A DNA stretch of 64,000 nt from Escherichia coli (GTDB lineage: Bacteria; Pseudomonadota; Gammaproteobacteria; Enterobacterales; Enterobacteriaceae): the NCBI RefSeq assembly GCF_016026235.1, contig NZ_CP065613.1; one strand, 5' to 3'. Of the stretch, positions 47,887-48,275 are shown in pieces. Position numbers and translations under genes: made by a program. The notes under the pieces were generated by a model that saw only the letters and a program-made list of their open reading frames with translations, did not search any database and had not been told where the DNA came from. Numbering within the stretch: position 1 is the first letter of the stretch; each line of letters begins with the position of its first letter.

Positions 47887-48210
47887 AACGGAGTCCTTTA
47901 ACAGAAAAGAAAAAAGTATATCGGTGCAAGAATATCTTATTTGATTGTCGAATGTTTTTAGTTTTTCTTAAAAATATTATTAATTTTATTAAATGTAAAA
48001 GTAATTAATTGATGGTATGAATTAAATGTTTGATGAATAAAGTATTGGAAATTATAGGGGTGCGCTATATTTGGTGGTTTATTCATGTAACTGAGAGGAA
48101 GATACATGATTAAAAATCATCGATTTGTTTATAATTTATACCGATATATTTTTTTTAGAATATATGAATGTCCGATAGTGGATTTTATTTTTACAATTTT
48201 TTGTGTTTAG

Positions 48211-48250
48211 GCATATAAAAATTAACCCGCCATTTGAACGGCGGGTTAAA
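48211..48250 (-). terminator. Intrinsic terminator of gltA
   Basis: aacccgcc-atttgaac-ggcgggtt hairpin followed on the minus strand by a U-run (plus-strand A-run at 48206-48220). Confidence 0.8.
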
Positions 48251-48275
48251 ATATTTACAACTTAGCAATCAACCA

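Follow-up and report, generated by a model that had tools for sequence, protein, structure and literature searches.

What is the role of the 389 bp that separate gltA and ybgD in Escherichia coli? The spacer is conspicuous because of its base composition. A reading made from the sequence alone took it for the control region of the cryptic ybg fimbrial operon, likened it to H-NS-silenced, horizontally acquired promoters and to phase-variable fimbrial switches, and pointed to a 34-codon open reading frame (ORF) on the plus strand which might encode a peptide. Here we examined the spacer within the window, i.e. the entire 64,000-nucleotide stretch under analysis, and its counterparts in other genomes.

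The gltA-ybgD spacer

In the RefSeq annotation of near-identical genomes the gene order is abrB-ybgO-ybgP-ybgQ-ybgD-gltA-sdhCDAB, and the spacer carries no annotated feature. The locus is laid out as follows.

47320-47886, minus strand: ybgD, 188 aa, major subunit of the Ybg chaperone-usher fimbriae
47887-48275, minus strand: gltA-ybgD spacer, 389 bp, 26% G+C, gltA terminator plus ybgD regulatory region and leader
48276-49559, minus strand: gltA, 427 aa, citrate synthase

The spacer has a G+C content of 26.0% compared to 52.2% for the whole window. The 389-bp stretch with the lowest G+C content of the 64 kb is located at 47868-48256 (25.2%). Because the second-lowest stretch anywhere has 34.7%, the AT-richness of the spacer is far above the local background. 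The AT run which the sequence-only reading had quoted, starting with ttattaattttattaaatgtaaaag, was found at 47978-48028. Thus, extreme AT-richness was confirmed.

Horizontal acquisition is another matter. The operon is variably present, being absent from WB61 and deleted in NCTC9022. However, it is syntenic across Escherichia lineages, residing at the same gltA-adjacent site in E. whittamii, E1V33 and E69, and the G+C content of its genes is near average (44-56%). Because several Escherichia species share the site, 'recently horizontally acquired' is not the most fitting description; more likely, the genus inherited the ybg operon from its ancestor and lost it several times, rather than importing it recently.

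A described RNA family, either a small RNA or a riboswitch, was considered for the spacer and rejected. An Rfam scan of 47000-50500 at E≤1 gave no match at the gathering score; the sole match, Pseudomonas P9 with 20.9 bits against a threshold of 43, covered the gltA terminator hairpin. In the literature we found no small ORF or small RNA described in the gltA-ybgD spacer.

Conserved elements in the spacer

Four elements were recognized, all on the minus strand.

48222-48249, minus strand: gltA rho-independent terminator hairpin with a 12-bp G+C-rich stem; the T run behind it lies at about 48212-48221 (terminator scan)
48182-48209, minus strand: distal sigma-70 promoter-like site TAAACA-16-TAAAAT, directly past the gltA terminator (scan)
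47971-47999, minus strand: proximal promoter-like site TTTACA-17-TATTTT, within the best-conserved block of the spacer (scan and conservation)
47894-47898, minus strand: ybgD Shine-Dalgarno sequence AAGGA, 7 nt ahead of the ATG at 47886-47884

The gltA hairpin and its T run are a strong intrinsic terminator. The hairpin folds with -21.9 kcal/mol (z = -4.1). In other Escherichia its stem is preserved by paired changes (AACCCGCC/GGCGGGTT versus AGCCCGCC/GGCGGGCT), among them an A-T to G-C change in E1V33 and E69. The spacer occurs in several diverged alleles, denoted A (the window type), B and C and described below. Across alleles which otherwise are 45-75% identical the promoter blocks, the Shine-Dalgarno site and the terminator are conserved. 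The distal promoter block is retained in alleles A, B and C as well as in E69 and E. whittamii, and AAGGA is invariant in all alleles compared.

The border between gltA and the ybg unit is apparent in strain WB61, in which abrB lies directly beside gltA and ybg DNA is absent (L007, 6803-7072). Alignment similarity between this operon-less locus and the window ends right after the terminator T run, at the distal promoter block. This assigns all DNA to the left of about 48204 to the ybg unit rather than to gltA.

A simple sigma-70 scan, which is not the PlatProm criterion, detected two promoter-like sites in the spacer versus 3.7 ± 2.3 in composition-matched shuffles. As the scan yielded no excess of sites, the many overlapping promoters that characterize promoter islands were not reproduced. 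The Cappable-seq and SMRT-Cappable-seq supplements, searched for transcription starts in the K-12 spacer, list no entry for this locus.

The K-12 counterpart and probable silencing by H-NS

The region is already known: its K-12 counterpart is catalogued as an H-NS-bound promoter island, 751980_413 ybgD(-)/gltA(-), one of 78 (Panyukov and Ozoline, 2013; PMC3661553). According to the same compilation the island is bound by H-NS in every ChIP-chip study covered and is associated with predicted foreign genes. Promoter islands are reported to bind RNA polymerase and to form open complexes, yet to give little full-length RNA. Genomic SELEX with the RpoD holoenzyme identified a constitutive ybgD promoter, TAAACA-16-TAAAAT, in the ybgD-gltA spacer, where an H-NS mark is also noted (Shimada et al., 2014; PMC3946193). 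The distal hexamers that our independent scan picked in the window are identical to this listed promoter.

The K-12 island and the window spacer share the locus, the flanking genes, the length of 389 bp, the distal hexamers and the gltA terminator block, and their G+C content is similar (26% in the window versus 29%). They differ in sequence: overall the spacers are 72-77% identical, the central ~290 bp 59-78%, and H-NS binding was measured on the K-12 allele only. The sequence-only reading, which saw here the regulatory DNA of a cryptic chaperone-usher operon bounded by the gltA terminator, agrees with this published counterpart. The link to H-NS holds in K-12 by published ChIP and, by analogy, H-NS most likely silences the window allele as well. 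The anatomy, base composition and conservation of the spacer, the non-conservation of the small ORF and the lack of switch features are established here, and binding of RNA polymerase and H-NS is published for K-12 only; equivalent behaviour of the window allele, the choice of promoter and a contribution of Rho are inferred.

A high-affinity H-NS motif, TCGATATATT or tCGATAAATT, was derived by Lang et al. (2007; PMC2094087). With up to two mismatches the window contains 82 sites resembling TCGATATATT, and five of these fall in the spacer, which accounts for 0.6% of the window length; motif-like sites are enriched in it.

Taken together, the spacer very probably consists of the gltA terminator and an H-NS-silenced ybgD regulatory region with no gene inside. 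Read along the minus strand, the order is the gltA terminator, a sigma-70 block, about 290 nt of AT-rich, ORF-free DNA with C exceeding G which contains a second promoter-like block, and the ybgD ribosome-binding site. The most likely mechanism is the one described for K-12: RNA polymerase could bind, but H-NS would nucleate within the AT-rich DNA, in this allele probably where it resembles TCGATATATT, and would spread or bridge across the entire spacer. In this way ybgD-Q-P-O would be kept silent under laboratory conditions.

Ybg is considered a 'core-associated' fimbrial type which is disrupted in many strains and occurs mainly in commensal and diarrhoeagenic lineages (PMC3559732). Transcripts of the ybg operon have been reported under BolA overproduction, in Shiga toxin-producing E. 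coli (STEC) from patients with haemolytic uraemic syndrome as compared to other STEC, in Shigella sonnei in Caenorhabditis elegans, and in S. flexneri. Since the operon is transcribed in some strains and conditions, silencing is not absolute.

Open reading frames in the spacer

The plus-strand ORF and the homopolymer within it are located as follows.

48106-48210, plus strand: 34-codon ORF, antisense to the ybgD leader; chance ORF
48149-48156, plus strand: T8 run; most relatives have T9 here, by which the small ORF is shifted to a TAG after codon 17

Position, spacing and the adjoining gltA terminator are exactly as described in the sequence-only reading: the ATG at 48106 is preceded by GAGG at 48094-48097, a spacing of 8 nt. 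The predicted product is MIKNHRFVYNLYRYIFFRIYECPIVDFIFTIFCV. That reading left open whether this was a peptide or a chance ORF; length statistics, non-conservation and database searches decide for chance and against the peptide. For DNA of this composition the length is nothing unusual. When the spacer was shuffled 2000 times with its dinucleotides preserved, 41% of the shuffles contained an ATG ORF of 34 or more codons. The frame depends on the T run. The window, O104:H4 and FDAARGOS_943 have T8, and the latter two encode the identical peptide. O18ac 873.10, SE11 and 8479 carry T9, and their frame hits a TAG after 17 codons.

The frequency of both forms was determined with a 120-nt query across the ORF, and genomes were scored by differences from either the T8 or the T9 form. 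Only 87 of 1468 allele-A genomes had at most one difference from the window form, whereas 1434 of 1474 genomes were within one difference of the T9 form. A T8 genome at most one difference off the T9 form is also at most one off the window form; therefore, T9 is present in at least 1347 genomes (at least 91%). Accordingly, the reading frame is not conserved in relatives: it is truncated by T9 within its own allele and is absent from alleles A2, B and C. In the K-12 allele the start position lacks an ATG and a 2-nt indel is present in addition, and EC20 lacks the ORF and has unrelated ORFs instead. In HD12481, the spacer of which is 94% identical, GTG replaces the ATG and no ORF of 20 or more codons exists there.

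Could 48106-48210 nevertheless encode a real small hydrophobic protein? The Shine-Dalgarno-like sequence (GAGG/GGAAG, 5-8 nt ahead of the ATG) and the identical peptide in O104:H4 and FDAARGOS_943 speak for it. Apart from the shuffles and the T9 truncation, several points argue against. The exact peptide was not among about 15 billion predicted proteins, and no NCBIfam model matched it or the other two of the three spacer ORFs scanned. The ORF runs antisense to the ybgD leader, and the promoter scan found no plus-strand promoter-like site. A real protein is thus very unlikely. As the ORF arises from a one-base change in the length of a T run, it is not a gene; it is a chance open frame made by the T9-to-T8 length variant. 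The small ORF can leave candidate lists. Because a common homopolymer variant can make or break an AT-rich ORF with a good ribosome-binding site, a single genome never suffices to call a small protein.

Another ORF, with 49 codons on the minus strand in the ybgD leader, is the longest of the spacer. It comprises 49 aa in the window and 17-44 aa at about the same place in other alleles, and it is sporadically annotated as 'hypothetical'. As a coding sequence it was rejected. Substitutions are spread evenly over the codon positions (4.1, 4.0 and 3.9) without any codon-position bias, and indels of 1-2 nt distinguish the alleles within the ORF.

Inverted repeat, leader composition and alternative explanations

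Allele A contains an inverted repeat around the proximal promoter block.

47910-47925, no strand assigned: left arm (AAAAAAGTATATCGGT) of the 16-nt inverted repeat, similar to the high-affinity motif of H-NS; allele A only
48140-48155, no strand assigned: right arm of the inverted repeat, ACCGATATATTTTTTT

The arms are complementary at 15 of 16 positions and flank 214 bp; a repeat as good as this appeared in 0.5% of the shuffles (p about 0.005). It speaks for a phase switch, to which the sequence-only reading had likened the spacer; such a switch could be a fimS-like invertible promoter bounded by the repeat, or a methylation switch of the Pap-like Dam/Lrp kind. The Pap type depends on GATC sites, whereas for the fim type inverted repeats, a recombinase and the occurrence of both orientations are required. 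Yet the GATC sites closest to the spacer, 47804 and 48381, lie outside it, with none in 47805-48380. No recombinase gene is annotated across the abrB-ybgOPQD-gltA-sdhCDAB neighbourhood. A BLAST query with the inverted segment reached ≥80% coverage in 0 of 5426 genomes, i.e. the segment has a single orientation everywhere, and the repeat is specific to allele A. A phase switch of either type is hardly credible and this part of the earlier reading was not upheld. The terminal repeats and their restriction to one allele would suit a remnant of a MITE-like mobile element, 246 bp long, which landed in the allele A spacer. But the segment is single-copy in E. coli genomes (median of one place per genome) with no other copies seen, alleles devoid of the repeat, those of K-12 and E. 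whittamii among them, align with its interior base for base, and a target-site duplication is not visible. Such an insertion, too, has next to no probability. A long-range helix in the leader RNA formed by the arms was likewise discarded as a conserved structure: the pairing energy is strong in allele A alone (z = -4.4), marginal in K-12 and E1V33, and no different from shuffles in E. whittamii, E69 and allele C. Judged by sequence resemblance, the arms may simply be two H-NS nucleation-type sites, CCGATATA(T/C)T. Arm sequences CCGATATATT and CCGATATACT both resemble TCGATATATT / tCGATAAATT, and CCGATATATT, in the right arm, matches TCGATATATT at 9 of 10 positions.

A more serious competitor concerns the step at which silencing operates. 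The C/G ratio of the ybgD-sense strand is 2.65 in the window (47887-48180) and 1.6-2.7 in every diverged allele. The absolute GC skew of the spacer is at the 99.9th percentile of the window, with G exceeding C on the plus strand, and the skew of the leader is kept in all diverged alleles though the sequence itself is not conserved. The skew at 47887-48180 may be a rut-like composition. Rho prefers long, untranslated, C-rich and G-poor leaders. Because the ybgD leader has these properties, termination after initiation could contribute to silencing. Taken further, silencing might be mainly post-initiation: the distal promoter fires, the ~290-nt rut-like leader loads Rho and transcription terminates before ybgD, while H-NS assists without blocking initiation. 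Consistent with this are the absence of a conserved ORF over the leader, the distal promoter reported as constitutive in vitro (PMC3946193), and the open complexes with little full-length RNA reported for promoter islands. On the other hand, this is drawn from composition alone, the skew could be a by-product of mutation or of H-NS sites, and the proximal conserved block could be a real promoter, which would shorten the leader to about 75 nt. We therefore regard mainly Rho-dependent silencing as rather unlikely and adhere to the H-NS-silenced regulatory region.

Diverged alleles of the spacer

The allele survey was carried out among 5426 complete E. coli genomes. Allele A, the window type, was found in about 1470 genomes and allele B, the K-12 type, in about 940. 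Allele C, the type of EC20, ATCC 8739 and E. coli B, was present at full length in about 1330. Several hundred further genomes match allele C only in the gltA-proximal third of the spacer. An example is NCTC9022, in which a deletion extends from inside ybgO to mid-spacer and a ybgO pseudogene is fused about 126 bp from gltA (L006, 7608-8129).

Thus, E. coli has at least three spacer alleles, which are 62-75% identical to one another. They are 63-70% identical to E. whittamii, 54-66% to E69 and 43-46% to Escherichia sp. E1V33. The E. coli spacer alleles are as far apart from one another as from another Escherichia species. In the adjacent 700 nt of gltA, by comparison, identity amounts to 98.4-99.7% among E. 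coli strains and to 92.6-95% between species. Divergence includes the subunit gene: ybgD of the window is 74% identical to that of K-12, and ybgD plus spacer (47281-48204) is 62-79% identical between E. coli strains, comparable to the divergence between species. EC20 combines a window-like ybgD (97%) and gltA (99.7%) with a spacer of only 62% identity, which indicates that the ybgD/spacer unit is a recombination mosaic. It looks as if old diverged alleles are reshuffled by recombination rather than replaced by unrelated DNA. Identity to K-12 is likewise as low as 75-87% in a further segment, 44381-44880, which spans the junction of ybgP and ybgQ.

The hyper-divergence of the alleles is the new part of this study. 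It is modest, a clear example of a known phenomenon. The spacer represents a hyper-diverged, recombining set of regulatory alleles beside a nearly invariant housekeeping gene, and it would lend itself to studying how a switch of promoter allele alters cryptic adhesin expression between E. coli lineages. A far-reaching interpretation, which we consider improbable, would be that the spacer and ybgD constitute an old trans-species or introgressed polymorphism. Its at least three alleles, 25-40% diverged, would be reshuffled independently of the subunit gene and would set phylogroup-specific, H-NS/Rho-dependent thresholds for Ybg expression, while each keeps both promoter blocks and a leader that is rich in C, poor in G and free of ORFs. 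In allele A the two inverted H-NS nucleation-like sites would bridge a loop around the proximal promoter.

Relation to known systems

The list of promoter islands also contains yadN/folK, sfmA, yehD, yraH, yfcV and elfA (PMC3661553). Among the H-NS-repressed promoters of other cryptic chaperone-usher operons, one that resembles ybgD is yadN, which has an AT-rich region before a major-subunit gene, low expression in the laboratory and no phase variation (PMC13245861). They differ in the kind of evidence. For yad, derepression in an hns mutant was demonstrated directly (PMC13245861, which cites Korea et al., 2010), whereas for ybg the evidence is ChIP and SELEX.

The fimS element of type 1 fimbriae resembles the spacer as an AT-rich, promoter-bearing segment of about 250-300 bp before the gene of a fimbrial major subunit, and in allele A this segment is flanked by a repeat. 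In contrast to fimS, the spacer has no adjacent recombinase genes and one orientation in 5426 genomes, and its repeat is not conserved between alleles. The study of 2010 by Korea and colleagues is said to have covered ybg.

Horizontal regulatory switching has reportedly been treated by Oren and co-workers in 2014. Switched intergenic regions as detected with Piggy (Thorpe, 2018; PMC5890482) are similar in that unrelated-looking spacer alleles lie between near-identical flanking genes. However, the ybg alleles can be aligned over their full length and have the promoter blocks in common.

Insertions, lesions and nearby observations

Insertion of IS elements into H-NS-silenced control regions is a paradigm established for bgl and flhDC. 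Similarly, at least two independent IS1 insertions hit the gltA-ybgD spacer, one in FDAARGOS_943 and one in FJ_Ec_21.

48007-48015, no strand assigned: IS1 target AATTGATGG, 9 bp, duplicated in FDAARGOS_943, the spacer being otherwise identical

In FDAARGOS_943 the IS1 element of 768 bp precedes the proximal promoter block by 8 nt (L008). Because the usher gene of this strain is a pseudogene, activation by IS1 would be pointless there. In FJ_Ec_21 the element resides in a K-12-type spacer near the gltA terminator, about 53 nt from the gltA stop codon (L003).

In the window, ybgQ (44810-47311) carries an in-frame CAG-to-TAG change at 46334-46336 on the minus strand which splits the usher into ORFs of 325 and 501 aa. 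The same TAG is present in FDAARGOS_943, where it is annotated as 'internal stop', while 873.10 and HD12481 have CAG. Due to this nonsense codon the Ybg operon of the window is probably non-functional whatever its promoter does. A homopolymer also varies in ybgD. The A6 run in codons 5-7 (plus-strand T6, 47868-47873) is A7 in O18ac:H14 873.10 (L001, 5978-6000). This shifts the ybgD frame, and RefSeq annotates a shortened ybgD.

K-12-type gltA-ybgD sequence of E. coli was also encountered in short contigs from public assemblies of unrelated organisms, namely in a metagenome-assembled genome labelled 'Collinsella sp.' (L014, JAIJJM010000367.1) and in a contig of Alkalicoccobacillus porphyridii (L017). 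In both cases this is almost certainly contamination. In SCPM-O-B-8794 a ybgD-like gene, 77% identical and starting with MIKGQKT, lies downstream of a different AT-rich region (L013, 4001-4564), with no gltA stop-codon motif within 4 kb upstream. It may belong to a second, relocated copy of a Ybg-type operon. On the other side of gltA, in the gltA-sdhC spacer, RefSeq genomes annotate a hypothetical protein of 35 aa, WP_001305582.1, in the region 49765-49872 (minus strand). Its frame, MRKSYEVGISPKINLCNSVEVLTNSFGTVISGRQV, is present in the window inside an ORF at 49765-49923.
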